A DNA stretch of 64,000 nucleotides from Eledone cirrhosa (Eukaryota), in contig OZ024753.1 in NCBI GenBank assembly GCA_964016885.1, positions 2,542,001-2,606,000 on the forward strand, read 5' to 3'. The notes under the pieces were generated by a model. That model did not search any database, was not told the DNA's origin, and saw nothing but the letters and a program-made list of their open reading frames with translations. Below are positions 13,071 through 63,220 of this stretch, piece after piece. The first letter of the stretch is position 1; the number at the start of each line of letters is the position of its first letter. Both the position numbers and the translations under genes were made by a program.

Positions 13071-13587
13071 TATACCCCCAACATCTTCATTAGTTGAAAA
13101 TCATAACCAGTGTTTTTCATTAGAAATATGTCAATGAAAAGGCTAATATGTCTTGTCTAGAAAGCATCTTCTCAAGAGGAGGTATTCTGGAGAGTAAATA
13201 TAACATAATTCCAGAGTCATTCTCTGTATTAGTAATAGAATAAAGCAAAGACAGTCAGCATTTATTGGTGTCTGTGAATAAGCATTGGTCATAATTTGCA
13301 GTAATATCTAATCGCAGAATCATTAATAATTGATAACATAATTATTATTTAAATAATAATTTTAAGAAGGAATATCGTTTCATTACTTAACACAATAAAA
13401 TGAAGGAACTCTGAATAGCTTATTAGATGTTAGGTTGTTACCTATAAGGGTTGAGATATCTAAAGGTCAATAAAACAAATGCCATACATATGTTATAGCT
13501 ATTTCAATCAATTAACTCTTTCACCTTAAAAAATATTGAGAATTTATACCTTATCAAAAGAAGTCAATAGCATCATATCCTCCTTCC

Positions 13588-13673
13588 TTCTCTCCCTTCA
13601 ATTACATCAGCTCAATATAGTAATCTAAAATGAACTAACCTTTCAGAATAGCCGGAAGAAGAATATAAACAAT
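13588..13673 (+). repeat. Left arm of 86-bp long-range inverted repeat (partner 15845-15930)
   Basis: 84 of 86 bases identical to the reverse complement of 15845-15930. Confidence 0.95.
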
Positions 13674-15844: not shown

Positions 15845-15930
15845 ATTGTTTATATTCTTCTTCAGGCTATTCTGAAAGGTTAGTTCATTTTAGATTACTA
15901 TATTGAGCTGATGTAATTGAAGGGAGGGAA
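15845..15930 (-). repeat. Right arm of 86-bp long-range inverted repeat (partner 13588-13673)
   Basis: Direct reverse-complement alignment, 2 mismatches. Confidence 0.95.
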
Positions 15931-17142
15931 GAATTCCAAAAGAATTATTGGGTTTATGTGATATATATATATATATATATATACTAACAAACTCATATAT
16001 ATATATACTCATATAAGAATAGTCAGCAAAGAAAAACAACCCTGGAGAACAATATAGTACAATAATGTTAGTTTAATGCTTGATATAGTGGAAAAGAGCC
16101 AGAACGTTTTGGATTTTAGTCCTTCATTGGATGATAGGGAGAAAGAGAGGAGCGTTGGGAATGAAAAGAATAAATAGGAAAACAGGCAAGAATAAGAAAA
16201 GGAAGAAAATAGAAAAAAGTTAGACAGGAGAAAAAATATGCTTTGCCATTTTGAAGGCATTGCTCTTCAAGGATTTAGATGTTTAATAGCTAAAGTAATG
16301 AATTTGATTCTTGATTCTGGCTACAGGCAACATTCTGCCATTTCCCCAGCATTTTACTCTATTTGCTTCAATCAATATAGCTAAAAAAAATAAATACTAT
16401 TCCAATTTCAATCTAAATAGTATGTTAGGAAAAATACAGCCAGCTGTGAAATTGCTTCAACAATTTATTCCATTTTTGATCACAGCACATGCTAATGCAT
16501 AAAATAAAGAACACTGATGAAAATAATAAAAAAACACAACTAAATTACCAAGCTATTTTATGTTATAGCACTGCCGTTTCCAATTTCATTAGCTTAGTTT
16601 CCTTTGTTGTCACTTTCTGTTTGATGTTGTCATGTTTCACTCTGTCACTTAATTTAAATGTTGACAATGGACTCATCATTCCTCAGGTGATTTGAAATAT
16701 CTGGATAAAGATTAATTTTTTGAGCACTTTTTTGAAATGTTCACAGATCGTGCATCGGTCAAAGATTGATTTTTTAAGAGGATTACAGAATATAATGGAG
16801 TTTTAATTTTTTTTACTTCCATTTATCTTTTGTGTGAGGCATCATTTGGATGATAATGGTTTAGAAATCTGGATATTACATGCAGCTGGAGAAGGGCTTT
16901 TATTTTACAGTTGGATTATTTCCCTACAGCTAACCAATTATTTATAAACTATGTGTAAAACTGGCTGCCAGCATGGCAAATTGAGGCAATTGTTGTAACA
17001 TGCCATTGTCTCTGAGCACAATATTGTAACTATAATAGTGTTCCAGAACATACAAACAGTAGAGTTGCTTTTTATGCTCATTCAAAAAATGTTTAGAATT
17101 CTAATGAAAGTTCTGTCTATAAATTCATTTACATAATTTAAT

Positions 17143-19592: not shown

Positions 19593-19929
19593 TACATCAT
19601 TCATTATTTCATTTTACGTCCACTTTTCCCTGCTTGCAAGGGTGGGACGGAAACTGATTTTGGCTTGATTTCTACAGCTGGATGCCCTTCCTAACACCAA
19701 CCTCATTTACAGTGAGTGCTTTTTTTGCCGTGGCACCTCCACGACCACTTTGCAGTAGAATGATATGGACCCCAGTCCCTATCATCTCATTTCTACAGCT
19801 GAGTAAACTGGAGCAATGTGAAATAAAGTGTCTTGCTCAAGGAAACAACACATCACCCGATCTGAGAATTGAACTCACAACCTTTCGATTGCAAGGCCAA
19901 TGCTCTAACCACTAAGCCATGTGCCTCCA
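19593..19929 (-). mobile_element. Full-length CORE-type SINE with RTE-derived tail
   Basis: Near-identical reverse complement of 57643-57978. Confidence 0.9.
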
Positions 19930-20480
19930 TACGTACATTAAAATGTGTCACTTTATACACTTAGTGATAAATGCACATTTTAGTGTTTTGAATGCTTCCA
20001 TTTACATCTGGTAGTCATAAATAGGCAAATTCAAATATTAAAACATGTTCTGTGATGATAACTTCACAAAGTGCCATTCTCAGTTTCTATGGATTTGTAG
20101 GGAAATGCATTAAGATCATATTTTTCTTATTAGAAGTCTTTAAAATGATGGCAATATTCTTTTAGTATTCGATCTTTACATAGAATCTGAAGAGATTCCA
20201 TTATGAAAGAAAAAGAACTCAGAGAATATAGAATATTGTGTATTTGAAGCATGGGAGGTTAAAGATCAGCAAATTAAAGTGAAAGTATATATATCACCCT
20301 TTCACCTGAAGCTTTATGAAAAAGATTGTATTGGACCATAACATGTTTATAGCTATTGGCATAATTTTCTCAGTAGGTGTGTAACAATAGAAATATTATC
20401 ACTATAAAATTGTGTTTCTTTCATGCAAATAGCACCTCTCCATCACCATCATAGTAATCACTTTTTTTACTACTGTATTC

Positions 20481-21062
20481 CATCACTCCAAGAGGAAAGA
20501 AGAGAGTGAGAGCAGAGGCCAGGTTGTGGAGGTGCTTGTGAGAGCCATCACTCCAGGAGGAAAGAAGAGAGTGAGAGCAGAGGCCAGGTTGTGGAGGTGC
20601 TTGTGAGAGCCATCACTCCAAGAGGGAAGAAGAGAGTGAGAGCAGAGGCCAGGTTGTGGAGGTGCTTGTGAGAGCCATCACTCAAGGAAGGAAGAAGAGA
20701 GTGAGAGCAGAGGCCAGGTTGTGGAGGTGCTTGTGAGAGCCATCACTCAAGGAAGGAAGAAGAGAGTGAGAGCAGAGGCCAGGTTGTGGAGGTGCTTGTG
20801 AGAGCCATCACTCCAGGAAGGAAGAAGAGAGTGAGAGCAGAGGCCAGGTTGTGGAGGTGCTTGGGAGACCTTACACTCAAGGAGGGATGGAGAGAGAGTG
20901 AGAGCATATGCCAGGTCAAGGAAGTGGCCAGAGAAGACTATTACTTGGTGGAAGAAAAGAACATGCGCTAGGTTTTGAAGGTGACCTGAGAGAGCCATCA
21001 CCCAGGGAGAAAAGAAAAGAGGGTGAGAGTAGAAACTAGATCGTGGAGGTGGAGTGAGAGAG
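20481..21062. repeat. 65-bp purine-rich minisatellite, about 6 conserved plus 2-3 degenerate units
   Basis: CATCACTCCA recurs at 20481, 20546, 20611 and onward. Confidence 0.95.
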
Positions 21063-21259: not shown

Positions 21260-21495
21260 CATGGCCTGGCTTGTTGGAATAGGCTCAGATCGTGCTGTAG
21301 CATGGCTAGGTTTGTTAGAATACGTTGTAGCATAGCCAGGCTTCTTAGAGGGTGCTATAGCATGGCCTGGCTTATTACATTGTGCTGTAGCATAACCAGG
21401 CTTCTAAGGTGGCGCCGTAGCATGGCTTGGTTTGTTAGATGGCACTGTAGCCTGGCTGTTTAGATGGAGCCCCGTGGAACGGCCAGGATACGTGG
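21260..21495 (+). repeat. Degenerate 30-bp tandem repeat (GCTGTAGCATGGCCAGGCTGTTTAGATGGT-like), start of palindrome block A
   Basis: About 8 units; related arrays at 26208-26297 (+) and 35930-36050 (-). Confidence 0.85.
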
Positions 21496-22416
21496 AACAA
21501 TCATTTCTAAATTTCACGTATGCGCATTTAACTCGATCCAAACCAAGAAAAAACAAATGGCCGTCAGTTTGTAAAATTTTTCAAGCTCTACAAAAACTCT
21601 TCCTAAATAGTTTCAGAAGAGACAGACGCAGTTTTCTGAAAGGTAACGAAGATGTTTATATTATGTTGGTAAATCTTTTCTCTTTAGTTCCCATCATAAT
21701 CAACCATCTTAACAGAAGTCTTTCTCTACTTACCGTATTTCTAATGAAATACATAGATCACGTGTTCCAATTCATGTTGAAAATAAACAATAAAATGTAG
21801 GGATTTAATAAAATTCTTTTTTATTCACAAAAAATGTATATAATGTATTTTTTTAAAACTGTTCCTAGTTTTCCCTGTAAGAGCTCAGTTGTCTATAGCA
21901 AATATTTTCGATGTATTTAAATATTTTTTTCAAGATTGAGATCAAAGACCGTAAATTGTTCATTCGATTCTTCAGCAGTATTAAGTATTTTCTGAAACTG
22001 TTGTAAATTAATTTTGTATTCTGGAGCAGATTCTACGGGCGTGTGTCTCGTATGAGGTTTTCTCTGGTGTTTTAAAGATAGGGTCCACAGACCAATTACC
22101 CGATCCCCGCCCACATATTCCTGAGAGGGTCGTGAAAGCAGACTCTTGAAACACTTCTTCCAGCGAGTCTAAGAGTTGTTTTACATCCTGTCCAGGAGGG
22201 AGTCTTGTATTCTTCGATGTTTCACGCCATGGAAATCGAGGTAAGCACCGGCGTGATGAGCCCCAGAGCTTGGGACAGACTTTAGATATCATCAACCATT
22301 TGAACAGCCTTTTTTCTTGGACACCAACCCTCGTGGTACCCTATTTCTAATGGAATACACACCCCATGCATCGCGATTAATATTGGAAAATAATGAAAAT
22401 TTTGAAGGAATTTAAT

Positions 22417-22635
22417 AATGATTTCTGATTTAGGCACAAGGCCAGCAATTTGGGGGTGTGCGGGGAAGTCGATTAAATCGAACCAGTACATTACTGGTGC
22501 TTTATTTATCGACGACGTAGGATGGAAGGCCAAGCTAACCTCGGTAGAATTTGAACTAAGAACGTAAATGGCCGTAACTCTGTGCCATAAAGCATATTGT
22601 CCGACGCACTACCGATACTGCCAATACACAGCCGT
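22417..22635 (-). mobile_element. SINE family 1, older subfamily, present in both palindrome arms
   Basis: TSD GAAGGAATTTAATAAT at 22404-22419 and 22636-22651; mirror copy at 37657-37870. Confidence 0.85.
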
Positions 22636-22693
22636 GAAGGAATTTAATAATAAAACCACCTGGCTATCGTTAAACTTGTTGCGTGTAAGTCAC

Positions 22694-22892
22694 TTAACTC
22701 TTTAGCATTTAAACCGGCCGTATCCGATCAGAATTTTCTCACCTTTTTCTGTTTAAACCAGTTGTAACTGGCCACTTATACTGATGTTAAGATATGTTCT
22801 CAAAATAAATGATATCAGAATTTCATAGATTCGATATTATGTGAGATAAAGCCTTTGCTGTGAAAATACAATAGTATATATCGAGTAATGTG
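22694..22892. mobile_element. TTAA piggyBac-like MITE, right terminus deleted
   Basis: Homologous to 2299-2515 and 63009-63220; empty TTAA site in the mirror arm at 37594-37597. Confidence 0.75.
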
Positions 22893-23277
22893 GACGGAGA
22901 TCGCCTTTGTTGTTCTTTCTCGACCAGATCCAGCTGGAACTCCTCTCGACCTCCTCTGCTATTGTCTTAAGTACTTTGAGTAACTGGGTGGAACAGGACC
23001 AGAGATATTTCATGAGATTGTACGCAGATATTTCTACCAACCCTCTCACTCCAGCCTGTGGGTTGAGAACTTTGACCTGGAAACCTACTTTTTAAAGAAA
23101 TTTCTCACTCCTGATCTCTGTCCTAGTAATCATAGCTGAAGTATTGATCGGTGTTAACAGATCGATTAAATTTTCACCACGTGAGTTCTCAATCATTAGG
23201 AGAGGATGACATCTTGGGTCAACTAGAGGTTACGATGAAACTTACCCATGTCTTGTGATCAGCCACTCCTTGTTATG

Positions 23278-23432
23278 TTTGTGATTGAGAGTTTGGCAGT
23301 GGAGACGCCAGGTACTCTTGCTCCTCACCCGACCACATCCCCATTCACGGCTATCGGAGCGGAGTTAGCAGCCAACAAGTGTGATCCACGCAAGGTGCAG
23401 TGGCTGTTTCAGTACGTCACCCTTGCCATCCT
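23278..23432 (+). mobile_element. CRE-clade RLE C-terminal fragment
   Basis: LAVETPG...IGAELAANKCDPRKVQWLFQYVTLAIL; mirror copy at 37150-37295. Confidence 0.65.
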
Positions 23433-23604
23433 CCCCAGCTCCAGAGCTCCGAGACAGACTGACCCTTAAGTTTCATTTATGGTAAGGGGCATGTCGAATA
23501 TATTTACTTAAGCACTATTGTTATATGAACTCAAATGAAAAACCTGTTTGTTTTTTTATTCACAAAAGTAATGTTGAAAATGAACAAAATATAGAGATTT
23601 AATA

Positions 23605-23785
23605 ATTGTTTCTACGTTAGGCACAGGGCCAGCAATTACCCAGTGCATTACTGGTACTTCATTTTATCGACCCCCGTAAGGATGAAAGGCAAAGTTAACC
23701 TCGGCGGGATTTGAACTCAGAATGGCCGTAACTCTATGCGTCAAAGCATGGCGTCCGACCCTCTTCCAATACTGCCAATCCACCG
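23605..23785 (-). mobile_element. SINE family 1, young copy, left arm only
   Basis: TSD GAGATTTAATAAT at 23594-23606 and 23785-23797; empty site at 36980-36992. Confidence 0.9.
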
Positions 23786-23869
23786 AGATTTAATAATGGA
23801 ATTCAACATGTTTCTTTTTGTAATCACATTGGGAGAGGGTGACATGTTGGGTAAGTGTCATCATACCGC

Positions 23870-25730
23870 CTTCTGACTGTAATTGTGTCATTCACCAATA
23901 GGCTCATCCATAGCTCCTGTCCTTCACACCTGAGGCCTCTTTTTTTTTTTCGCCTAGCGTCACCGCTCTCAGGAAGAAAGAGGGTGGCATACGCCCCATC
24001 GCTGTGGGCAATGTCTTCCGGAGGCTGGCTGCTAAGGTGGTTTGCAGGTCCATCACACCTGAACTGAGTAAGGAGTTCAGTCCAGTGCAACTGAGTGTGG
24101 GCCTGTCCAGTGGCTGTGAGGGGGCCACACATGCAACCAGGCACTTCTTCAATAGCTGCCCACCTGAATCGGCATCCAGGGACTCCAGGCGCCCTATTGT
24201 CAAGCTTGACATGACGAATGCGTTCAACTACATACGCCGTGACCATCTGCTCGATTCCTGCCTCAGCCGAGTCCCCTCTGCCTACCTGTCATATGGAACC
24301 TTGCTGCTGATACGGTCATACCTTCAGCCACTGGGGTCTAACAGAGTGACTATTTGGGCCCCCCTCCTGTTTGCTCTTGGTGTAGACGACATTGCTCAGA
24401 GTATCACATCCCCTCTCAACGTTTGGTACCTGGATGATGCTACGTTGGGTTTGCCATGACCTACAATAGGTGGGTCCTGTCCTGGCGGGAATCAGCCTCC
24501 AGGTCAATTCATCCAAGTCGGAAGTGGTTAATGTCAACCAATATGCGGAGAGCTTTGCAGCCTCGGACGTACGGCCCATTCTTCACCAGGTATAGGTGAC
24601 ACCCAAAGACGATGTCCTCATTCTCGGATCACCGATTCACCCGCTCCAACATCAGGTCCAGGCTCCAGCAACTCAGGACTTTCACCAGTCGACTGGGCAT
24701 GATTGACTGTCACCCAGCCCTCTTCCTGTTAAGGAACTGCTTCGCAATGCGGAAGCTTCTCAGCCCTCCGTCCTACAGCCACGCATCTCTCCTCGCTTAC
24801 CTTGACACTTGTATCCGAGCGGCAGCTGAGGAGAGATGCAACATCAGGTGGCAACAGGCCACCTTACCTGTTAGACATGGTGGCCTTGGCCTCCGGTCCC
24901 CGATATCGCTGGCTTTGCCGGCGTTTCTTTCGTTCGCAACCTCATACCGCGTCCTCGTCAGCAAGGTTCTCAGAGACAATGGAACCCTCTGTAATCGAGG
25001 AACGTGAGGCCGCCTGCGAGACGTGGGACTTAACCCAGTAGATGTCTCTCCTCCTACCCCCTGCTGATGCCAAGTACTCCCAAAGCATTTAGGATGCCAT
25101 CCAGTGAAGCCTGGTCTCAGACAGGCTCACGCGCCAGCTCGACCCGCACCGCCTTGCCTGTTTTCGCGTGGCCTCCAACCCCACAGTGGTGCCTGGCTCC
25201 ATGCCTTACCCTCATCCACTGGCACGCATCTGGATAACGACAGCCAGTGCATCAGCGTTTCCCTGAGGCTTGGCCTCCGGATCTGCAATCCACACAAATG
25301 TTGCTGCAGATCCACCCTGGAGTCTTTCGGCCTCCACCCGCTACAGTGCTGGCCGCCTTCCACGCTATGCTGCCCTCAACGAGGTCATAAAGTATGGTTT
25401 CCTTGCTGCAGGCTACCTCTCCCAGTTTGAGTCGGTGGGGCTGGACCGAGGGACGGCAAAAGGTATGACTATCATCCCGTTCCGCGGTGGCAAACCCCTC
25501 GTCTGGGATGCCACGACACTTTTCCCAGCCGCAGTCTGTGACTAACCGAGGTTCTGCTGCACTTCGGACCGAAGAGTGCAAGCTCTCCGACAGGTTTACA
25601 ATCGTGCCCTAGGGCTACCTCCCTACTCACAACCATAGGCGCTGAGCTCGTGTGAGTCTCGCGAAAGGGAATGGCTCTTCCAGCGCATCCCCCTGACCAT
25701 CCTCCGGGGAAACGCCTTCATTATGTCCGC
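23870..25730 (+). pseudogene. CRE-clade non-LTR retrotransposon, degraded reverse transcriptase plus zinc knuckle and restriction-like endonuclease
   Basis: Stitched frames: KKEGGIRPIAVGNVFRRLAAK...KLDMTNAFN...GPLLFALG...LNVWYLDD...QATLPVRHGGLGLR...GAWLHALPS...PHKCCC...RYAALNEVI...GMTIIPFRGGKPLVWDAT...WLFQRIPLTILRGNA; many frameshifts and stops. Confidence 0.9.
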
Positions 25731-26859
25731 CGAGGCTATGGGGCGGCCAGCGCGTGGGACCCCATTTGCTCATAATATAGAGAGATGGAGGCGATGACAG
25801 TGGCTGTTCAGCTCTTCCGTGTTCGGACACATTGCACCTGTCATATGGATCATATGATAATTTCATTTTACTTGTGGTGTTGCAGCCAACGTTTAGAGTA
25901 TATTACGGCAATTCTACCTCCATGCGGCCAATAGTTACATCTAACGTCCCTGATATAAGGTTGGGTCTGTATGTCCCTCCATACGGCAGCTGTTGCTTCT
26001 AATATAAGGCTGGGTCTGTTTTTTAACGTCCCTTACATAGAGTTTATTGTGATAGCTGTCCCCCACACGGCAGCTGTGTTTGTCTTTTAACATTCCAAGA
26101 ACTGGGGTCATGTGTCAATCGCACACCCTTAAACCTGGAATCCATCAAGGTACGTATTAGTCACATTTGTATCGATTTTTTAAATTATTCTTTGATGAAA
26201 TGATACATGCTGTAGTATGGCCAGGCTGTTTAGATGGTGTTGTAGCATGGGCAGGGATCTTAGATGGTGCTGTAGTATGGCCAGGATACTTGGAACATGC
26301 GCACTGAGTTTCTAAATCTTGCGCTTGCGCATTCTACTCCATCCAAAGCAAACAAACAAAAAATGGCCATCAGTTTGTAGAATTTTACAAGCTTTATAAA
26401 AACTCTTGCTAAATGGTTTAACAATGGATAATAGCAGCTTACCGAAAGGTAACGTAGATTTTTATAGATCTTTCTCTCCTCTGTTCCTTTGTCTTTATCA
26501 AATCCTTCTGTCGACTATTTCTCCTCACCAGATCAAACTCGCTCCCACTTAGCAATATGTTTCGATTGTTGACTTTTCCAAAAGTTTCCCACCCCTTGCA
26601 ATCTTTCCGAGGTACACACAATAAGTCCAAATGTTCTCCATCTATGTTTTAAACCCTTTTTCTCCCATTTGACTGAAGGGAATTAATAACATTTATTTTT
26701 TATTCACAGAAAATATGTCGATTGTATTTTTTTTAAACACTTCTAGTTTTAGTTAATATTTAGGTGTATTTAAATGCTTTTTTCAAGATTGAGATCAAAG
26801 ACCTTAAATTGTTTATTCACTTACGTTCATTGGGAATTTTCGCCCTCAACCGTAACACC

Positions 26860-27258
26860 CCTCACAAGTTCTTGATATTTGGCCTTCTTGTCACGAACGC
26901 CTATAGAGATTTGAGAGTGATCCTGGGCAGGCGATGATCCATCATCCTAAAGACGTGCCCTGCCCAGCGTAGTTGGGAGTTCAGCTTCATGTTTAATCTT
27001 CCACACGTTAGTCTACCAAATTCACTGCTCATCTTTGCCAGTTTGTTGCTGATTTCCCTGTCAATCTTAGCATCCGATGTGAAGATGTACCCCAGGTAGC
27101 TGAAATTGATGGACTGTTTTCAGTTCAGTCTCGTCAATGGGGAGGGTGGTAAACTTCCTGAGGTGCAATACCTCCATCTTCTTTAAGCTTACTTACAGTC
27201 TAGAGAGCTGGGCAGCCTCTGCGAAACTGGAAGTGATACGCGGCAAGACTCTTTCTCT
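26860..27258 (-). mobile_element. RTE-BovB-like LINE fragment with internal deletion
   Basis: RITSSFAEAAQLS...SLKKMEVL...FSYLGYIFTSDAKIDREISNKLAK...FGRL joined to SQLRWAGHV. Confidence 0.8.
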
Positions 27259-27422
27259 CAGATAACAGAATGGGCCTGCCTTTTAACGTACCCGATATAC
27301 AGTGGTAGTTGTCCCCCCACACGGCAAACAGGTCTACATGTATTATATGTTACCAGCTTGACATAATTATATTTATTTCCATAAAAATTGTTCGTATATA
27401 CGTTCAAAATTACTTTATATAT

Positions 27423-27495
27423 ATATAGAAACGGAATGAGAGATAACACACGAAATATATTTTGAGACGTGTTATCTCCCTTTCCGTTTCTATAT
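27423..27495. other. 73-nt imperfect hairpin at the outer end of the left inner inverted repeat
   Basis: ATATAGAAACGGAA-TGA-GAGATAACAC ... GTGTTATCTC-CCT-TTCCGTTTCTATAT. Confidence 0.9.
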
Positions 27496-27539
27496 TTTTT
27501 TTTTAAAAAGTAAATAAAATTTTACCTATAAATATGACT

Positions 27540-27830
27540 ATTTGACTTAGTAGAATTGCGGCTTGTGCGTGGCGATGCGCGCAACGGCTCGGACTTCGTC
27601 GGCTACGTATGTATGTGTCGTTTCCATACTATGTATCACGAGTTCGAATCGTTGTGGTGTGCACGTGGCTACGGCGGCTGGGATGTTTGCAGGCTGGCTA
27701 TATGCTGGCCTGCGTCCTAGACCACGATGAGAATCCGCTTTACCCCCTTTTGCTAAAAAATGTTAGAATTATCTCCCTTTATTTAACTCTTCTCTTTTTT
27801 TCAATTGACTTCCGGTTGTTTGAAAGATAA
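27540..27830 (+). promoter_or_regulatory. GC/CpG-rich promoter-like or Pol III-like block (left copy)
   Basis: CpG-rich in an AT-rich background; AGTTCGAATC at 27641, CACGTG at 27662, ETS-type ACTTCCGGT at 27808, all retained in the mirror copy; function is inferred. Confidence 0.4.
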
Positions 27831-27847
27831 TTAACTGAAGAGACTAA

Positions 27848-29878
27848 ACTTTCAAAAACACACATTTCATATAGAAATTTTTTTCGACTTTTCAGAAACA
27901 CACATTTCATATAGAAATTTTTTTCGACTTTTCAAAAACACTCATTTCATATAGAAATTTTTTTCGACTTTTCAGAAACACACATTTCATATAGATTTTT
28001 TTTTTCGACTTTTCAGAAACACACATTTCATATAGAAATTTTTTTCGACTTTTCAGAAACACATTTCATATAGAAATTTTTTTCGACTTTTCAGAAACAC
28101 ACATTTCATATAGAAATTTTTTTCGACTTTTCAAAAACACTCATTTCATATAGAAATTTTTTTCGACTTTTCAGAAACACACATTTCATATAGAAATTTT
28201 TTTCGACTTTTCAGAAACACACATTTCATATAGATTTTTTTTTCGACTTTTCAAAAACACTCATTTCATATAGAAATTTTTTTCGACTTTTCAGAAACAC
28301 ACATTTCATATAGATTTTTTTTTCGACTTTTCAAAAACACACATTTCATATAGAAATTTTTTTCGACAACACACATTTCATATAGAAATTTTTTTCGACT
28401 TTTCAAAAACACTCATTTCATATAGAAATTTTTTTCGACTTTTCAGAAACACACATTTCATATAGATTTTTTTTTTCGACTTTTCAGAAACACACATTTC
28501 ATATAGAAATTTTTTTCGACTTTTCAGAAACACATTTCATATAGAAATTTTTTTCGACTTTTCAGAAACACACATTTCATATAGAAATTTTTTTCGACTT
28601 TTCAAAAACACTCATTTCATATAGAAATTTTTTTCGACTTTTCAGAAACACACATTTCATATAGAAATTTTTTTCGACTTTTCAGAAACACACATTTCAT
28701 ATAGATTTTTTTTTCGACTTTTCAGAAACACACATTTCATATAGATTTTTTTTTCGACTTTTCAAAAACACTCATTTCATATAGAAATTTTTTTCGACTT
28801 TTCAGAAACACACATTTCATATAGATTTTTTTTTCGACTTTTCAAAAACACTCATTTCATATAGAAATTTTTTTCGACTTTTCAGAAACACACATTTCAT
28901 ATAGATTTTTTTTTTCGACTTTTCAGAAACACACATTTCATATAGAAATTTTTTTCGACTTTTCAGAAACACATTTCATATAGAAATTTTTTTCGACTTT
29001 TCAGAAACACACATTTCATATAGAAATTTTTTTCGACTTTTCAAAAACACTCATTTCATATAGAAATTTTTTTCGACTTTTCAGAAACACTCATTTCATA
29101 TAGAAATTTTTTTCGACTTTTCAGAAACACACATTTCATATAGATTTTTTTTTCGACTTTTCAAAAACACTCATTTCATATAGAAATTTTTTTCGACTTT
29201 TCAGAAACACATATTTCATATAGATTTTTTTTTCGACTTTTCAAAAACACTCATTTCATATAGAAATTTTTTTCGACTTTTCAGAAACACACATTTCATA
29301 TAGAAATTTTTTTCGACTTTTCAAAAACACTCATTTCATATAGAAATTTTTTTCGACTTTTCAAAAACACACATTTCATATAGATTTTTTTTTGGACTTT
29401 TCAAAAACACTCATTTCATATAGAAATTTTTTTCGACTTTTCAAAAACACACATTTCATATAGATTTTTTTTTGGACTTTTCAAAAACACTTATTTCATA
29501 TAGAAATTTTTTTCGACTTTTCAAAAACACTCATTTCATATAGAAATTTTTTTCGACTTTTCAGAAACACACATTTCATATAGAAATTTTTTTCGACTTT
29601 TCAAAAACACACATTTCATATAGAAATTTTTTTCGACTTTTCAGAAACACACATTTCATATAGAAATTTTTTTCGACTTTTCAAAAACACACATTTCATA
29701 TAGATTTTTTTTTGGACTTTTCAAAAACACTCATTTCATATAGAAATTTTTTTCGACTTTTCAAAAACACTCATTTCATATAGATTTTTTTTTGGACTTT
29801 TCAAAAACACTCATTTCATATAGAAATTTTTTTCGACTTTTCAGAAACACACATTTCATATAGAAATTTTTTTCGACA
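27848..29878 (+). repeat. 40-bp satellite (CGACTTTTCAGAAACACACATTTCATATAGAAATTTTTTT), about 50 copies
   Basis: Directly visible, highly homogeneous. Confidence 0.98.
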
Positions 29879-30470
29879 CTTCATCTACATTCTTAGTATC
29901 TTTTTTTAAGACACTTTATCTACATTCTTAGTATCTTTTTTTAAGACACTTCATCTACATTCTTAGTATCTTTTTTTAAGACACTTCATCTACATTCTTA
30001 GTATCTTTTTTTAAGACACTTCATCTACATTCTTAGTATCTTTTTTTAAGACACTTCATCTACATTCTTAGTATCTTTTTTTAAGACACTTCATCTACAT
30101 TCTTACTTTAGACACTACATTCTTAGTATCTTTTTTTTAAGACACTTCATCTACATTCTTACTTTAGACACTACATTCTTAGTATCTTTTTTTAAGACAC
30201 TTCATCTACATGCTTAGTATCTTTTTTTTAAGACACTTCATCTACATTCTTAGTATCTTTTTTTAAGACACTTCATCTACATTCTTAGTATCTTTTTTTA
30301 AGACACTTCATCTACATTCTTACTTTAGACACTACATTCATAGTATCTTTTTTTTAAGACACTTCATCTACATTCTTACTTTAGACACTACATTCTTAGT
30401 ATCTTTTTTTAAGACACTTTATCTACATTCTTTAAGAAACTTCATTTAGATTCTTAGTTTCTTTTTTTAA
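29876..30470 (+). repeat. 35-bp satellite (GACACTTCATCTACATTCTTAGTATCTTTTTTTAA), decaying to about 30650
   Basis: Period of 35 bp measured at 29881/29916. Confidence 0.97.
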
Positions 30471-30649
30471 GACACTCCATTCAGATTCTTTATTTAGTTT
30501 ATTTTTGTAGCCACTTCATCTACATTCTTTCTAAAGAAACTTGATTTAGTTTCTTTTTAGACACTTGATCTACATTCTTCCCTAAGAAACTTTATTTAGA
30601 CAATTTACTTACATTCTTTCTAAAGAAATTTCTTAGTTTCTTTTTAGTA

Positions 30650-31068
30650 TGTCTTACTCAGTTTCATATAGACTCTTGATGTCTTTATTCATTTTTGTCA
30701 AATAAACTGAACACAATTCGTATATAGTATGTAAACTTTCTTTATTGTCTTATTCAGTTTCATATAGACTCTTGATGTCTTTATTCATTTGTCAAAATAA
30801 ACTGAACACAATTCGTATATAATATGTAAACTTTCTTTATTATGTCTTACTCAGTATCATATAGACTCTTGATTTCTTTATTGTCAAAATAAACTGAACA
30901 CAATTCGTATATATGTAAACTTTCTTCATTAACAGAAACTTCGTCATTCCGACTTGTTACAGCAAACAACATATGACCTAGAAGGCTGGACATCTGTAAA
31001 CTTTCTTTATTAACAAACTTCGTCATTCCCACTTGTTACAGCATATGACCTAGAAGGCTGGACATCTG
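30650..31068. repeat. ~97-bp triplication plus ~75-80-bp duplication at the palindrome centre
   Basis: TGTCTTACTCAGTTTCATATAGACTCTTGAT-like unit at about 30650, 30747 and 30843; ATATGACCTAGAAGGCTGGACATCTG occurs twice. Confidence 0.85.
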
Positions 31069-31888
31069 AAATAAGAAAATCTATTAAAGTCATGTACGTA
31101 CGTTGTCAATAAAAAGAATGTTTACAAAATTATTCTTCCGACTTTGTTTTTTATTATAGAGACATTGATGTTTCTGAAGAAAGAAAAATCTAAGGATGTA
31201 GATGAAGTTTCCTAAGAAAGAAACAATGTAAATAAAGTAACTAAGAATATGGATGTAGTTTCTTAGGAAAGAAACTAAAAATATAGATGAAGTTTCATCT
31301 AGAAGAGAAATATGTGGTGTTGTATTACATTGCTTTACCTCCGTAAAAATGGTAAATCTTAAGAAGGAAACTAAGAATGTAAATGAACTTTCTAAAATAA
31401 TAATCGTTCAAAACGGGTGTAATATTCAACCAACATCATGTGGAAGACTTGAAAAGAAGTAGTGGACACCTTCAAGTAGCTAGGAGATTTTGCCATGGAA
31501 AGGAAACTCTAGCAAAACGAAGAATAAAAATAACTAGCAGATTCAGGGTGACAGGAACATGACGAATTTACAACAAAGCACGAGGATATCATGAAGGGAA
31601 CTAGAAATATATTATTTACAAATTTAAATAATAGTATGGCCGAGAAATATGTGGTGTTATTACATTGGAATGTAAAGTGTGGCAGAAACTAACATTTAAA
31701 TAATTATTGCATTATGGAAGGAAATAAACGTTTCAATAAATGAAGGAATAAATGTTTCAATAAAACTTTACTTTACCGCCTCTGAAATGAGGGTTTTTGA
31801 AAGTGTAAAAAAAAAATTCTATATGAAATGCGTGTTTTTGAAAAGTCGAAAATAAAATCTATATGAAATGCATGTATATATCGTCAAG

Positions 31889-32092
31889 ATGGCTTAGAAC
31901 GATTTTTTAGAAGAGGTAACACCATTTGTATGTGTAGTTTTTAGTTTAAAGAAAGCATGTATCGAGTCGGTGTTGATGTGCCAGAAAGCCACCGTAAATA
32001 AAACAAAATACCTCTTCACATGAACACGAGATGTGAGAGTTATTGACATAAAGTGTGTATCTAATAAAATGTATGTGTATAGAGAGGTTTAG
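31889..32092 (+). pseudogene. Possible broken small ORF of unknown function
   Basis: TCAAG-ATGG start directly after two inverted 40-bp monomers; MA*NDFLEEVTPFVCVVFSLKKACIESVLMCQKATVNKTKYLFT*TRDVRVIDIKCVSNKMYVYREV; no recognised homology. Confidence 0.2.
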
Positions 32093-32261
32093 TTTCTTAG
32101 ATAGTCCTAATATACAGCAAAGAGAGTTATTGACATAAAGTGTGTATCTTATAAAGTGTATGTGTATAGAGAGAAGGTTTAGTTTCTTATATTAGTCGTT
32201 GTGTACAGGAAAGAAAATATTACATACCTCTTTACATGAGAAAAATATCCAAAATGGTTTT

Positions 32262-32560
32262 CTTTCAAACAACCGGAAGTCAATTGAAAAAAAAGAAGAG
32301 TTACATAAAGGGAGATAACTCTAATAACATTTTTGAGCAAAAGAGGGGTAAATCGGATTCTTCGCGTGGTCCAGGACGCAGGCCAGCCTGCAAATAGTCC
32401 CAGCCGCCGTAGCCACGTGCACACCACAACGATTCGAACTTCCGACACATAGTATGGTAACGACACATACATACGTAGCCGACGAAGTCCGAGCCGCTGC
32501 GCGCGCCGCCACGCTAGGGCGTAATTCTACTGAGTAAATTAGTCATACTTATAGGTAAAA
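32262..32560 (-). promoter_or_regulatory. GC/CpG-rich promoter-like or Pol III-like block (right, inverted copy)
   Basis: Reverse complement of 27520-27830, roughly 85% identical by eye; GATTCGAACT at 32431, ACCGGAAGT at 32272. Confidence 0.4.
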
Positions 32561-32581
32561 TTTTATTTATTTAAAAAAAAA

Positions 32582-32658
32582 ATATAGAAACGTAAAGGAA
32601 GATAACACGTCTCAAAATATATTTCGTGTGTTATCTCACTCTCATTCCGTTTCTATAT
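32582..32658. other. Hairpin at the outer end of the right inner inverted repeat
   Basis: Reverse-complement copy of 27423-27495. Confidence 0.9.
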
Positions 32659-33504
32659 ATAAAGCAATTTTGAACATATATTTGCAGTTTTAATGCAGAA
32701 CAATTAATATGAAAATAAATGAGGGCAGCAGGGGTACAAATGCCAAAACGTATAGATGTGTTAAAACTTTAGTTTAGAAATGCACTTGACAGCGTCGTGG
32801 AACTTGGGAAGAGTTTAAAACATAAGTTTATAGTGTTGGGGCTGATGAATCCAATGGATTGTTTAGGGAGTTTAATTGTGGTGGTTTATCGAAGTTCGAT
32901 GCTGACCCTGTTCTACAATTGAGGATCCTTTGATGACTGAAAGATTGTACGATGGAGACGGAAGTTAGACATGTCTTTAAACCGCTTTGTTTACCCTCCA
33001 GCGAGAGGGTTTTAAAATGTGGTTACAATCAAGCGATAGACATAGAAGATTATACAGCTTAGACATGTCTCTTTTAATCATTTTTTGGGCGACCTTATGT
33101 ACATGCCTTTGGCCTTCTAACCAAGCGTTGGCCACAGAGAAAATCTTAGAAGCCAGACAGGACATTGAGACACACACACAACACTTCCACTGAAATATGT
33201 ACTGCCTGTACAGTCACCAAAGGAGGTATAGACTGATATATGTACAGTCACCATCGGTTTTCGATTGACAACGATAAGTGCACCCCGTAATAATACACAT
33301 ATATCACCACATGACCAGCAACGCATTAACAATTTTGAAATGAAAAATATATTCACACCTGTATTACTTTAATTTATGCCGTTTACATGCATCCTTTTAT
33401 CAACGAATAATTAAAAAGATCGATATAAATTTGACTAATACGTACCTTGATGAATTCCAGGTTTAAGGGTGTGCCATTGACACATGACCCCAATTCTTGA
33501 GATG

Positions 33505-34078
33505 CTAAAAGACAGGTTAACCTTTTATAAGCTGTAACTGTGGGCCGTATCGAGTGAGAGACAGACCCAACATTATATTAGATGTACCTGTGGGTTGTAT
33601 GGAGGGACAGCCACCATAATATACCGTATATTAAGGACGTTAAAAGACAGACCCATCCTTATATTAGATGCAACAGCTACCGTTTAGAGGGACAGCTGCC
33701 ACAATATACTGTATATAAAGGACGTTAAAAGACAGACTCATTCTTAGGTGTAACTGTGGACGGTAAGGAGGGACTGCTACCACAATATACTGTATATCAG
33801 GGACGTTAAAAGACAAACACAACCTCAGATGTAACAGCTGCCGCGTGTGTGTATGAGGGGGGGGGGGCTGCTACAACAGTATACTGTATATGAGGGACGT
33901 TAAAAGACAGACCCAGACTTATATTAGATTTTACAGTGGGAAGTATCGAGGGACAGCTTCCACAATATACAGTAAATAAGGGACGTTAAAAGACAAACAC
34001 AACCTTAGATGCAACAATTGCCGTATCGAGAGACAGCTTCCACTGTATATCAGGGGCGCTAAAAGGCAGGCCCATTCT
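33505..34078. repeat. Degenerate ~85-bp tandem array, 6-7 units
   Basis: GGACGTTAAAAGACA-like motif at about 33635, 33720, 33801, 33895 and 33980; inverted relatives at 25885-26090 and 27270-27325. Confidence 0.85.
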
Positions 34079-34084
34079 TTTATC

Positions 34085-34432
34085 ACAGAGAAAGAGTCTT
34101 GCTGCGTATCACTTCCAGCTTCGCAGAGGCTGCTCAGCTCTCTGGACTGTAAGTAAGTATTCCACCAGCTTGCGCCTTGGGAATAGTACCACCCTCCCCA
34201 TATCACCATTGGCGAGACTGAACTGATAACAATCCATCATTTCATCTACCTGGGGTGCATCTTCACATCGGATGCCAAGATTGACAGGAAAATTAGCAAC
34301 AGACTGGCAAAGGTGAGCAGTGAATTTGGTAGACTATACCAACGTGTGGAAGATTAAACACGAAGCTGAAGTCCCAAATACGCCAGCCCACTCTTAACAG
34401 ACGTTCGTGACAGGAAGGCCAAATATCAAGAT
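34085..34432 (+). mobile_element. RTE-BovB-like LINE fragment (mirror of 26860-27258)
   Basis: YHPPHITIGETELITIHHFIYLGCIFTSDAKIDRKISNRLAKVSSEFGRLYQRVW; same internal deletion junction as the left copy. Confidence 0.85.
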
Positions 34433-34787
34433 TCGAACTCAGTGAATAACTGCAGTGTGGACCCTATCGTTAAAACCTCATGAGACACACACCCACAGAT
34501 TCTGCTCCAGAATACAAAATGAATTTACAACAGTTTCAGAAAATATTTAGCACTGTTGAAGAATTGAATCAACAATTTAAGGTCTTTGATCTCAATCTTG
34601 AAAAAAGCATTTAAATACATCTAAATATTTGCTAAAACTAGGAAGAGTTTAAAAATAAGTACACTCGATACATTTCCTGTGAATAAAAAAGAAGCATCCT
34701 GAATTTTATTATTAAATCCCTACATTTTATTGTTTATTTTCAACATTAATTGGAACACATGGTCTGAGTAAAGAATACGGTAAGAAG

Positions 34788-35015
34788 GGACTTCCCCTGG
34801 ATAGGACGCCAGTCGATTGCAAAGTTAAAGTCTGTCTCAAACCCGGAGGCTCATTAGAACGGTGTTTATCCTCAGCTGGACTGAACGCTGGTACACATTT
34901 TCAGCTATGTACACTGGAGCCACGTGAAATGAAGTGTTTTGCTCAAGAGCACAACACGATCTAAGAATCGAACTGATCACATTATGATCGTAAGTCCAAC
35001 ACTGTAAGCACTATG
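34788..35015 (-). mobile_element. CORE-type SINE, older copy
   Basis: GTGAAATGAAGTGTTTTGCTCAAGAGCACAACAC core in reverse orientation. Confidence 0.65.
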
Positions 35016-36438
35016 GAAATACTGAAGTTTCACACGGTGTGTGACAAGACTGACTTAATTACAGGTATAGTCCATCTTACAGGCTTCCAGAGAGTTTCTG
35101 TCTACTAAATTTCAATCACAGGATATGGGTCAACTGAAGGTCATGATAACACCTGCCTAAGATGTCACTCTCTCATCTAATGATTGAGAAAAGTTAATAG
35201 ATATCGATCTGTTAACACTGATAAATACTTCAACCATGACTACTAGGAGAACAGACATACACTGTTCTTGGACTATTAAGACGAAAACAAACTTAGGTGT
35301 ATAGAATTAAAGACGGGAGATAAGATTACTCCATCGATAAAGTCAAATTGGAGAAAAAGGGTTTAAAACATAGATGGTGAAGAGCTGGACTTATTATGTG
35401 TACCTCAGAAAGATTGCAAGAGGTGGCCAACTTTGGAAAAGTCCGCCAATTCAGCAATCAAAACTACCTCGTTCGATTGCTAAGTGGGAGTGAGTTAGAT
35501 ATGGAGAGGAAGACAACCACAGCAGGATTTGATAAAGACAAAGTAACTACCATAGGAAGAAGTAGGAACAATTTAAAAACTATACTAGATACATATTTAT
35601 TAATAAAAAATGTATGTTAAATGTTATTATATTCACAATGTATTGAAACGTGTAAGTGTGTATTTCAATACGTTAACATGAGAAAAAATAGGTAGGTGTA
35701 AACAGTAGATCATACGAAGGATACTAAGAGGGGAAGATTTACAAAAATACCTCAACATAATATAAAAATCTACGCTACCTTTCGGAAAGCTGCTATTATC
35801 CATTATTAAATCATTTAGCAAGAGATTTTGTAAAGCTGGTGAAATTCTACTAACTGACGGCCATTTCTTTTTCTTGTTTTGGATGGAGTTCAATGCGCAT
35901 GCGCGAGATTTAGAAATCCAGTGCGCATGTTCCAAGTATCCTGGCCATACTACAGCACCTTCTAAGATCTCCGGCCATGCTAGAGTACAATCTAAACAGC
36001 CTGACAATACTACAGTATTATCTAAACAGCCTGGCCATGCTACAGCTCTAGAAGTTAATCTATAATTACGAACATACGTAATTCTCAGGGAGATAAAGTG
36101 TTATAAAACTGGCCATTTGGATGACAGACTTCTATACGGTTTCTGTCTACCCAGTTTCACATGGGGCGCTGATCGAACCTGCGACTTAGTTGATATCGAT
36201 CTTTACAAACACTGATCGATAGTTAAACAATGATGAACATACCGCGGAAAAAGTGATCGAAAAACTGAAATGAATTTACAATTGCTTTAATTTTTACGAA
36301 TGGTTCGGCTGAAAATGAGTACCAGCAATAAGTGGGTGGGTTAACCCTGTGATGGACTGGCGTCCTGTCCAGGGGGGAGTCTTGTACTCTCAGTCACTTT
36401 ACGAGATAAGCTTCTGGACTCGCGAAAGACCAACGATC

Positions 36439-36706
36439 CAGAGGCGTGGAGTGCCTTGGTGATGCCCGGGGAAAATCTTGATTGTAAGCCCCAAAGACTC
36501 AAGTATAAGGCCTAATATACTGAGAAATATTATGAGAAAGGAAAACATTTTGAATATATAAAAACAGATGAAACATGAAATAAACGCTTTATTCGGTTTT
36601 AATATGAATCAATAAAATGTATTAAGTTCTTTTCCCCAAAGGATGCCCGGAGCCAACGCACCGTCGTACACCCCCCCCCCCCCCCTGCCATTTCTGCACG
36701 CTACTG
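36439..36706. mobile_element. Possible hAT-like MITE
   Basis: CAGAGGCGTG ... CACGCTACTG imperfect terminal inverted repeats; no clear TSD. Confidence 0.35.
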
Positions 36707-37656
36707 CAGAGAACCTCCACATACTTTGGGGATTTAAGGCAAGAAAAATATCGCCGACTAACAATATTAAATTGTGATTAGTTTTAGAAAATATTTAACA
36801 CTACTGAAGAATTGAATCAACAATTTACGGTCTTTGATCCTAATCTTGAAAGAAACATTTAAATCCACCGAAAGATTTGCTAAAGACATCAGAACTGTTA
36901 CAGGGAAAACTAGGAACAGTTTTAAAACAAAATACACTAAAGATATTTTCTGTGAATAAAAAAGAACATGTTGAATTTTATTATTAAATCTCTACATTTT
37001 GTTTATTTTCAACATTAATTTTGTGAATAAAAAACAAACACATAGGTTTTTCATTTTTTAATAATATAACAATAGTGCTTAAGTAAATATATTCTACATT
37101 CCCCCACCATAAATGAAACTTACGGGTCAGTCTGTCTCGTGGCTAGGGAAGGATGGCAAGGGTGACGTACTGAAACAGCCACTGCACCTTGCGTGGATCA
37201 CACTTGTTGGCTGCTAACTCCGCTCCGAGTTGGGGATGTAGTCGGGTGGGGAGCAAGAGTACCTGGAGTCTCCACTGCCAAACTCTCAATCACAAAACTA
37301 AGTGGCCGATCACAGGACTTACGTCAACTGGAGGTTACGATGAAACTTACCCAAGATGTTACACTCTCCTAATGATTGAGAACTCACGTGGTGAAAATCG
37401 ATATCGATCTGTTAACAATGATCAATACTTCAGCTATGATTACGAGAAGGAGAGAAAAAGTTCTTTAAAAAGTAGGTTTCTGAGTAACTGGGTGGAACAG
37501 GACCAAAGTACTTAAGACTTAAGCAGAGGAGGTGGAGAGGAGTTCCAGCTGGATCTGGTCGAGAAAGAACAACAAAGGCGATCTCCATCCAGATTAAGTG
37601 ACCTACACGCAACAAGTTTAACGATAGCCAGGTGGTTTTATTATTAAAATTCCGTC

Positions 37657-37870
37657 ATGGCTGTGTATTGGCAGAGCGTCGGACAATATAGCATAGAGTT
37701 ACGGCCATTTACGTTCTGGGTTCAAATTTTACCGAAGTTATCTTTGCCTTCCATCCGTACGGCGCCGATAAATAAATAAATAAAGCACCGGTAATGTACT
37801 GGTGTGGATTTAATCGACTTCCACCACACCCCAAATTATGGGCCATGTTTCTAAATCAGAAATCATTATT
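37657..37870 (+). mobile_element. SINE family 1 (mirror of 22417-22635)
   Basis: Same flanks and TSD in inverted orientation. Confidence 0.85.
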
Positions 37871-37949
37871 AAATTCCTTCAAAATTTTCCAATATTAATC
37901 ACGGCGCGTGGGCTGTGTGTTGCATTAGAAATAGGTTACCACGAATGCA

Positions 37950-54122: not shown

Positions 54123-54123
<1 letters not shown>

Positions 54124-54464
54124 GAGGCGCATGGCTTAGTGGTTAGAGCATTGGGCTTGCAATCGAACGGTTGTGAGTTCAATATTCAGACTGGTTCATG
54201 TGTTGTTTCCTTGAGCAAGTCACTTTATTTCACATTGCTCCAGTTTACTCAGCTGCAGAAATGAGATGATAGGGACGGGTCCATGTCATTCCACTGTAAA
54301 GTGGTCGTGGAGGTGCCACGGCAAAAAAGCACCCAGCCCACACTTTAAATGAGGTTGGTGTTAGGAAGGGCATCCAGCTGTAGAAATCAAGCGAGAATCA
54401 GTTCCCGTCCCACCCTTGCAAGCAGGGAAAAGCGGACGTAAAATGATGATGATGATGATGATGA
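54123..54464 (+). mobile_element. Full-length CORE-type SINE with RTE tail, inserted in (TA)n
   Basis: tRNA-like head, core, CCACCCTTGCAAGCAGGGAAAAGCGGACGTAAAATGATGATG tail. Confidence 0.9.
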
Positions 54465-54850: not shown

Positions 54851-54940
54851 TAAATAGTATGCACCACCCCACCCTCCCATACATCTCCAGAGAACAGTCT
54901 GAAGCATACATCCAGTGAAGCCTCCAGACCTCTGTAAATT

Positions 54941-55780
54941 GGTCATGATGGCAACACAACAAGTAGCACTCAGCCAACACTGTATGGTGGTCATGATGAC
55001 CACACAACAAGCAGCACTCAGGCAACACTGTATGGTGGTCATGATGACAACACCACAAGTAGCACTCAGCCAACACTGTATGGTGGTCATGATGGCAACA
55101 CAACAAGCAGCACTCAGCCAACACTGTATGGTGGTCATGATGACCACACAACAAGCAGCACTCAGGCAACACTGTATGGTGGTCATGATGACAACACCAC
55201 AAGTAGCACTCAGCCAACACTGTATGGTGGTCATGATGGCAACACAACAAGCAGCACTCAGCCAACACTGTATGGTGGTCATGATGACAACACCACAAGT
55301 AGCACTCAGCCAACACTGTATGGTGGTCATGATGGCAACACAACAAGCAGCACTCAGCCAACACTGTATGGTGGTCATGATGGCAACACAACAAGCAGCA
55401 CTCAGCCAACACTGTATGGTGGTCATGATGGCAACACTGTATGGTGGTCATGATGGCAACACTGTATGGTGGTCATGATGACAACACAACAAGCAGCACT
55501 CAGCCAACACTGTATGGTGGTCATGATGGCAACACAGTATGGTGGTCATGATGGCAACACAACAAGTAGCACTCAGCCAACACTGTATGGTGGTCATGAT
55601 GGCAACACTGTATGGTGGTCATGATGGCAACACTGTATGGTGGTCATGATGACAACACAACAAGCAGCACTCAGCCAACACTGTATGGTGGTCATGATGG
55701 CAACACAGTATGGTGGTCATGATGGCAACACAACAAGTAGCACTCAGCCAACACAGTATGGTGTTCATCATGGCAACACG
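54941..55780. repeat. 48-bp minisatellite (CATGATGGCAACACAACAAGCAGCACTCAGCCAACACTGTATGGTGGT) with 25-bp deletion variants
   Basis: Directly visible; explains the 16-aa periodic ORFs. Confidence 0.97.
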
Positions 55781-63008: not shown

Positions 63009-63220
63009 TTAACCTTTTAATGTTCAAACTGGCCAGAATTCTCTACCTCTTTCTGTTGACACTGGCTGTAACTGGTCGCTCAAACCGATGTTAAGGTAAT
63101 GTTCTCAAAATAAATTCTTTCAAAGTCTCATAGATTCGATATTATGTGAGATAATAATGTGAGGTAAAGCCATGAAAAAATAATAGTATATATAGAGTAA
63201 TGTGAATGCTAAAGGGTTAA
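63009..63220. mobile_element. TTAA piggyBac-like MITE
   Basis: TTAACCTTTTAA ... TGCTAAAGGGTTAA; reverse-oriented homologue of 2299-2515. Confidence 0.75.

Follow-up and report, generated by a model that had tools for sequence, protein, structure and literature searches.

The window analysed here is a 64,000-nucleotide stretch of the 3.0-Gb Eledone cirrhosa genome (assembly GCA_964016885.1, contig OZ024753.1, hereafter C13, positions 2542001-2606000); coordinates without a contig or locus prefix are window positions. The SINEs (short interspersed elements) that it holds look octopod. Between 21 and 38 kb it carries a rearranged mirror structure with mosaic arms, one of a family of loci that is almost wholly restricted to small contigs, falls into chromosome-specific subtypes and has neither shared ends nor coding capacity. 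With a probability of roughly 55%, we read the structure as a member of a small-chromosome family whose core is a predicted RNA polymerase III (Pol III) gene, here in two facing copies, and which would have spread by inverted duplication and same-chromosome gene conversion. The original prediction for this locus, made by a model reading the window, had described a palindrome built from a modular cassette; its interpretation is partly supported, and it missed both the genome-wide family and the RNA-gene look of the GC block.

The mirror was tested by self-BLAST of the window, orientation being counted over matches of at least 60 nt with tandem arrays masked. Left-right matches are inverted in 16 of 17 cases and same-side matches are direct in all nine, which recovers the pairs and the polarity first described, with blocks on the plus strand left of about 31 kb and on the minus strand right of it. 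Mirror pairs are formed by block A (21384-21668 with 36046-35753, 73% identical; 26202-26466 with 36022-35761, 87%), block D (26483-26674 with 35547-35341, 79%), block B (21723-22061 with 34790-34472, 77%; 21769-21999 with 37020-36780, 82%; 26693-26822 with 34693-34562, 89%), a short interspersed element (SINE) with its flanks (22331-22697 with 37944-37594, 82%), a BovB-like fragment (26967-27327 with 34383-34018, 83%) and the hairpin+GC block (27396-27830 with 32681-32258, 87%). A further pair (23080-23606 with 37480-36980, 83%) contains a CRE-like piece, whose homologue at another locus overlaps a CRE match. The 40-bp and 35-bp arrays are also mirrored in decayed form (31783-31870, 31180-31400), which locates the centre between about 31.07 and 31.18 kb. 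No mirror copy exists of the 2-kb CRE insert (23.83-25.9 kb). We take this decayed retrotransposon to belong to the CRE clade, and the BovB-like fragment, for which no Pfam match was found, is presumably BovB.

A mirror partner is present for 3142 of 6650 non-array bases on the left and 2999 of 6850 on the right. Because under half of each arm pairs, any long double-stranded RNA (dsRNA) formed by read-through would be patchy. Block A occurs three times, as had been counted, and the expected four or so copies of block B are accompanied by fragments. The proposed colinear order of A, D, B, BovB, 85-bp array and hairpin holds apart from the left 85-bp copies (25898-26077), which lie outside it. 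Arm identity, put at roughly 80-90%, spans a wider range of about 70-94%, and the proposed extent (21400..37895) is adjusted to begin near 21287 and to end at 37944.

Blocks of the window recur across the genome. All family counts given here are lower bounds, and DNA searches favour close relatives of the C13 query, a bias that tells against our reading. Searches with the hairpin+GC block (40 scored among 313 candidates, with two motif searches added) yielded at least 136 copies in at least 78 loci. Neighbouring copies within 15 kb of each other mostly face one another as in the window (35 of 54 pairs), with 15 pairs in tandem and 4 pointing apart. Searches with block A and with blocks F-G add loci on C9, C17, C18, C24 and C25, and the union reaches at least 115 loci, five of them recognized solely by a C23-associated motif; the family comprises about 110-115 loci. 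Recurrence as palindromes with shared outer ends or target-site duplications had been named as a point to check; neither shared ends nor such duplications were found. Six other C13 loci have the same asymmetric core as the window, and related asymmetric cores are present at many loci. The structure is not a single fold-back, and the suggestion of repeated fold-back (inverted) duplication is upheld.

The distribution of the family is strongly uneven. All loci but one lie on C8-C26, which make up 26% of the genome, while C1-C7 hold 65% of bases; the exception is on C7, and C1-C6 and C28 yielded none. The single C7 locus (88.30 Mb, L208-L209) contains two RNA-gene-like copies and an acceptor. As a control, the CRE retrotransposon of the left arm has 24 of its 39 other scored copies on C1-C7. 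Scored matches to blocks F-G3 are confined to C13, C17, C18, C20, C24, C25 and one scaffold. In a tree of 54 copies, 13 contig changes are required compared with 31.2 after shuffling (as low in 0 of 200 shuffles), a clustering to be expected of near-copies once copying is local. Regular spacing of loci finds no support, with a coefficient of variation of gaps of 0.7-1.3 on incomplete lists.

Two types of locus can be distinguished. Y-type loci (C9, C17, C18, C25 and a scaffold) have one common order: block A, block D, block c60, arrays, octamer words and a diverged GC block, then 85-bp arrays, the BovB-like piece, block B and an opposite block A. At X-type loci (C12, C13, C15, C20-C23), two inverted GC blocks mostly enclose the arrays, and c60 usually sits in the middle. 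Both types meet in the window. X and Y subtypes are 67-76% alike over aligned columns, with large indels, and the expanded tandem unit also varies, being 40 bp on C13 and C15, 35 bp on C14, and 85 bp and 43 bp on C25.

Arm identity differs from locus to locus, reaching 95-98% at some and 67-87% at others. In the window, positions 26685-27849 are 98.2% identical to a locus at C13:1.27 Mb, 1.3 Mb away, despite mirror partners inside the window that are 83-89% alike; the arm types therefore diverged before this unit was copied or converted. The structure had been called old, which fits the 6-30% difference between its arms but not this close match. At nine C15 loci the hairpin+GC block (about 480 bp) is 94.1-97.5% alike and has a sharp edge common to the loci, while identity over the rest of their family blocks is 79-90%, leaving aside a single 96% match outside the core. 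Such a pattern may reflect older loci converted by a younger block.

The GC block at the core looks like a Pol III gene for a folded RNA of 150-195 nt, read toward the centre. A TATA-like word, TATAAGTA or a variant, ends 23 nt ahead of a G, the predicted start, and thus lies at -31; it is seen in both subtypes in an alignment anchored on the start context only. In the U6 genes of this genome the TATA word ends 22 nt before the start and an octamer lies near -78; in Y-type copies a near-octamer in reverse orientation sits at about -80. A word fitting the B-box consensus occurs in 70 of 78 copies and was the slowest motif in a site-rate test, with a fraction of 0.007 of windows as slow. The first TTTT follows the predicted start by 140-200 nt in 66 of 78 copies (earlier in 8, later in 4). 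Folding of the GC block gives z of -4.7 on the inward strand versus -1.3 on the outward strand, and 17 of 24 representatives likewise have a lower z inward. CpG observed/expected ratios are 1.36-1.39 in GC blocks and 0.89-1.33 in block A, compared with 0.27-0.38 in the window flanks.

The predicted fold consists of a terminal stem, a long irregular stem (holding GTTCGAATC in the left copy), a 3' hairpin domain and a closing TTTT. In 17 X-type copies 88% of cells pair, and nine Y-type copies aligned without the model form the same helices as X. The inward strand is favoured in both subtypes (-58.2 vs -47.7; -43.0 vs -15.8). A covariance model built from the 17 X-type copies finds 13 Y-type copies at full length on the same strand with 21-44 bits, and nothing in 24 control stretches. 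The right copy in the window has an 11-nt deletion in the 3' hairpin and carries TATAAGTA at 32553-32546.

A number of known RNA classes were considered for this element. Rfam gave only sub-threshold chance matches (tRNA, vault, Y and others), although diverged mollusc members may escape it. 7SK RNA has a repeated GAUC motif in its 5' hairpin (PMC8406779; PMC2995076). An identity with 7SK was rejected by way of this motif and Rfam rather than of the genome's own 7SK gene: all 78 copies have at most one GATC, and Rfam yielded no 7SK match with E allowed up to 10. Aligned locally to the signal recognition particle (SRP, 7SL) RNA gene of this genome, the element gave z of at most 2.7 in 32 comparisons, and BLAST of two U6 upstream regions against the element returned short chance matches only, among the matches listed. 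A retrozyme is contradicted by a hammerhead core in none of the 78 copies and in none of the Rfam scans of the window. A SINE was rejected as well: the 55 matches to the internal pattern all lie on C8-C26, and the copies examined retain their upstream flank. A candidate splice donor at the GC block's outer end is not conserved. The hairpin upstream of the RNA gene, whose imperfect repeat word recurs across the family, was rejected as a precursor of microRNA or a natural short hairpin RNA, since it folds on both strands and matched microRNA models below threshold only. Its inward fold is the better one in 14 of 21 distinct copies, Y-type loci lack it, and it would now read as flank 5' of the RNA gene. 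As separate observations, tandem arrays at C19:31.78-31.84 Mb and C12:42.10-42.13 Mb hold about 32 U6 genes and about 21 SRP RNA genes, and in some U6 units the octamer ahead of the TATA word is replaced by SINE-like sequence.

A second predicted unit is formed by block A and the central splice acceptor, which together look like a small spliced RNA polymerase II (Pol II) unit. Block A contains words that we take to be NRF1-like and YY1-like, and an AAG/GT donor (the slash marks the splice position) that 28 of 30 aligned copies keep; the remaining two are truncated ahead of the donor or across it. In 47 of 50 copies, block c60 opens with a pyrimidine tract plus AG (AG being part of the search pattern); AATAAA follows, about 50 nt past the predicted acceptor in the window, and the block marks the centre of X-type loci. 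Of the 13 Y-type loci fetched, 10 have donor and acceptor on one strand at a distance of 0.9-1.4 kb, an arrangement that predicts a spliced non-coding RNA of about 200 nt in Y-type loci. In the right arm of the window the donor of block A copy 3 is on the strand of the central acceptor, at a distance of 4.7 kb. The joined frame would have only 18-26 residues with frame-breaking indels between copies, protein coding was rejected for want of any conserved frame outside transposons, and no host gene was identified in 264 kb around the window. The donor-to-acceptor joint was not among the short-read contig matches listed (two runs from one sample, with DNA-like even coverage). Among the tandem units, those of 35 bp and 40 bp (27850-30650) fold above shuffles on the minus strand only (z -5.6 and -3.4), and those of 85 bp and 30 bp give z above -1.5 as structured RNAs.

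Taken together, these elements suggest the following mechanism. An ancestral unit, still present on C9, C17 and C25, would have comprised a short spliced Pol II-like unit running from block A to c60, next the arrays, and then the RNA gene on the opposite strand. The GC block would be transcribed toward the centre from the TATA-like word at -31 with help from the internal B-box, and the transcript would end at the first T-run and adopt the fold given above. Breaks at open, hairpin-rich sites would be repaired from nearby sister loci on the same chromosome, which could yield inverted pairs, patchwork arms, unstable arrays and the recently homogenised block of about 480 bp over the gene. The CRE, BovB-like and SINE pieces would be copied passengers.

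Several results weigh against this reading. The TATA-like word is present in 69 of 78 copies, a figure that is not independent because the copies were filtered on that word and its spacing. X-type copies lack the octamer that U6 genes have near -78, and the A-box fits only 37 of 78 copies even with up to two mismatches. The 17 X-type copies show no significant covariation: 34 of 500 shuffles score as high, and 3 pairs are changed on both sides versus 3.9 after shuffling. RNAalifold returns no structure on the unfitted mixed X and Y alignment and recovers only the long stem on X alone. In the model-fitted alignment of 30 mixed rows, double-sided changes number 94 versus 42 after shuffling and none of 500 shuffles reaches the score; this leans toward the model, but the signal is strong because the alignment was fitted to the structure, and it is largely the X/Y split. 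The 3' hairpin carries deletions in many copies, so many copies may be dead. No transcript of the predicted RNA gene was seen, and in the site-rate test block A motifs are not singled out (0.12-0.35 of windows as slow).

Some of these results would also suit an inert relic: a real family without function, being an old promoter-like or tRNA-like remnant within a core duplicon, whose fold and motifs are kept by gene conversion alone. The non-significant covariation within X, the frequent hairpin deletions and the inconclusive motif rates all agree with it, the signs of conversion are clear, and GC-rich sequence folds readily. A relic does not readily account for subtypes that are only 67-76% alike, with large indels, and that nevertheless retain helices, B-box word, TATA spacing and T-run position; CpG is retained as well. 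We consider a relic unlikely, if the least unlikely of the alternatives.

We rate slightly lower a Pol II-driven source of dsRNA or PIWI-interacting RNA (piRNA) precursors, in which block A reads inward and the ETS side outward, so that both strands of each arm are transcribed. The well-kept block A donor and its matching acceptor with AATAAA fit such a source, as does the convergence of block A and the CCGGAAGT word, which we take to be ETS-like, over arms that hold CRE, BovB-like and SINE pieces. These transposon pieces, however, lie in both orientations to the promoters and make up a minor, variable share, the fetched stretch of many X-type loci lacks block A, and the motifs of block A show no measurable slowing relative to their neighbours. 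Such a source would be compatible with the Pol III reading rather than exclusive of it.

The odds are poorer still for a giant non-autonomous mobile element (mobilised by Foldback, Helentron or Penelope machinery) that inserts as a palindrome, a form of which, a giant Foldback-like composite element, had been offered in the original prediction. Foldback elements have long modular inverted repeats with tandem subrepeats, and the modular inverted arms seen here are alike in this respect; a short hairpin also lies at the end of the left block, (TA)n adjoins one C23-associated end and the right end of the mirror structure, and frames that we take to be Penelope-like lie near three loci (L081:2629-5487, L066:6221-8162, L100:3242-4584), one of them with a weak reverse transcriptase match. 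The family differs from Foldback elements in having no terminal repeats at shared ends, no target duplication, internal arrays and no genome-wide scatter. More specifically, shared outer ends were not found, the ends differing between loci and between the window arms (30-bp array versus block E), and at 16 boundaries taken from alignments none has a flush target-site duplication, the best direct repeat being at most 4 nt. A precise TA-targeted end on C23 was rejected, as it recurs back to back inside the family and is an internal junction. No transposase occurs among 128 frames from fetched family loci, 127 of which have no Pfam match and one of which is a LINE reverse transcriptase, and no copy has the hammerhead core. 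Near-absence from large contigs, clustering of copies by chromosome and window arms of different subtypes rather than of one template also speak against insertion. Finally, an assembly artefact, already held unlikely in the original prediction, has almost no chance: no short-read contig spans the whole structure, but separate parts of either arm have exact matches among such contigs (all from a single sample, which may be the one assembled), including a match at 30986-31124 that runs through the c60 junction; the arms differ, and the asymmetric core recurs at the six other C13 loci.

Features of the mirror structure and its surroundings (window positions; splice positions, promoter words and RNA genes are predictions)
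Feature	Position	Strand	Remark
30-bp array and block A copy 1	21287..21668	+	CpG-rich, promoter-like
Predicted 5' splice donor AAG/GTAACG in block A copy 1	GT at 21643	+	
Block B, then further family blocks	21723..22330	+	
Block E and SINE	22331..22697	+	common to many family loci
Inserted dispersed repeat	22693..22891	.	left arm only; further copies 2316-2516, 63034-63204
Blocks F, G, G2 (CRE-like piece), G3	22886..23606	+	family-specific
Younger SINE insertion	23599..23785	+	left arm only
Decayed CRE-type retrotransposon	23830..25900	+	passenger without mirror copy; RVT_1 E 3e-6
85-bp unit remnants and block H	25898..26209	+	
Block A copy 2	26202..26466	+	predicted donor GT at 26449
Blocks D and B, BovB-like fragment	26483..27327	+	
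Hairpin upstream of predicted RNA gene	27416..27502	.	z -8.4 and -9.4 on the two strands
TATA-like word TATAAATA	27527..27534	+	end 23 nt ahead of predicted start
Predicted structured Pol III-type RNA gene, left copy	27558..27751	+	reads toward centre
ETS-like word CCGGAAGT	27808..27815	-	just beyond predicted terminator
40-bp array	27850..29883	+	51 copies
35-bp and 95-bp arrays	29867..30930	+	
Block c60, two copies	30930..31110	-	predicted 3' splice acceptor AG at 31067-31066
Degenerate mirror of 35-bp and 40-bp arrays, right-type spacer blocks	31180..32255	-	
ETS-like word, right copy	32273..32280	+	
Predicted structured RNA gene, right copy	32339..32522	-	faces left copy, 90% to it
Hairpin, right copy	32576..32664	.	
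Blocks R1 and H, 85-bp array, BovB-like fragment, block B	32690..34790	-	85-bp array at 33559-34080
Blocks G', D, R5	35115..35753	-	
Block A copy 3	35753..36046	-	predicted donor 35768-35767
Blocks R4, B, G3-G, F, SINE, E	36046..37944	-	(TA)n tract from 37949 adjoins end

Outside the mirror, the window contains a purine-rich 65-bp tandem array directly beyond the left arm (20480-21060), an inverted pair of 87 bp (13587-13673 and 15845-15931, 97.7% identical, 2.2 kb apart) that could be the ends of a small DNA transposon, a young dispersed repeat of about 340 bp (19593-19931, 54123-54460, 57640-57980; 90-93% alike) that is also found near other loci, and tandem arrays of 48 bp and 112 bp (54940-55780 and 58332-58674). 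At other loci, centres of the C20 type form perfect palindromes, carry nested GC-rich hairpins of 75 bp in both orientations and contain a palindromic word (L117:5950-6450, C20:35.228 Mb) that we take to be CTCF-like; this centre occurs at about 16 places on C20 and one on C19, and the perfect palindromic words occur in C20 centres only, with none in the window. Two family loci, at C15:3.31 Mb and C26:14.14 Mb, have C2H2 zinc-finger frames no more than about 10 kb away (L075:8286-9998; L119), and a link to zinc-finger clusters was rejected, with linker words in just 2 of 35 regions. A PIF1 helicase fragment lies within an arm at C13:9.09 Mb (L047:8653-9825), and the C21:20.69 Mb locus has a nearby open frame of 701 codons with no Pfam match (L070:930-3032).

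No earlier description of such a family in an octopus genome was found in the literature, a search that left supplements uncovered, so that cephalopod non-coding RNA tables could list the RNA; the text of PMC13652810 contains none of 'palindrom', 'satellite' or 'tandem repeat'. If expressed, the element would constitute a structured small RNA family absent from Rfam, with more than 100 gene copies and two deep subtypes, in a cephalopod, and its covariance model and precisely predicted ends allow direct tests.

The fission yeast IR-L/IR-R and centromeric tDNA barriers are single loci at which TFIIIC binding and barrier activity have been measured (PMC7474672; PMC2040200). They resemble our loci in having inverted repeats with B-box words or Pol III genes that flank a repeat-rich domain, a likeness in sequence layout alone, and the family here has one B-box word per copy. 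Speculatively, and at low odds, facing Pol III gene pairs around satellite cores, placed every 1-3 Mb and of one subtype per chromosome, might act as boundaries or anchors loaded with TFIIIC/Pol III, or supply chromosome-specific RNAs, and so lend every small chromosome its own identity in folding, pairing or segregation.

The euchromatic 1.688 and Rsp-like satellites of the Drosophila X form scattered blocks (PMC7403614) and share with the family small scattered blocks, a younger unit invading older loci and arrays shifting by unequal exchange. They are satellites only, on one chromosome, whereas the family here has per-chromosome subtypes on many chromosomes as well as predicted genes. The snaR family of African apes consists of lineage-restricted Pol III small RNAs that spread mostly by segmental duplication, not retrotransposition (PMC3045588), which parallels the lineage-restricted, duplicated small RNA family predicted here. 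However, snaR derives from Alu and is expressed, while the RNA of our family is a prediction and no source element was found for it; the family differs further in its facing pairs around satellite arrays, more than 100 dispersed loci and chromosome-specific subtypes.

The LCR16a/NPIP core duplicons are cores of about 20 kb that encode protein families (PMC7419210). They are alike in their recurring core, variable mosaic flanks, largely intrachromosomal dispersal, inverted copies and possible interlocus conversion, and in our family a core does recur within mosaic flanks, mostly intrachromosomally. In contrast, the core here is less than 1 kb to a few kb long and non-coding, without a conserved frame or Pfam match that would indicate a protein gene family, and the blocks measure 5-30 kb. 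The family belongs to none of these four systems. Regardless of expression, it displays core-duplicon-like behaviour outside primates: a small non-coding core spreads and homogenises chromosome by chromosome and almost avoids the large chromosomes with two thirds of the genome. This is relevant to the question of why octopod chromosomes of the two size classes differ, and it supplies chromosome-specific markers.

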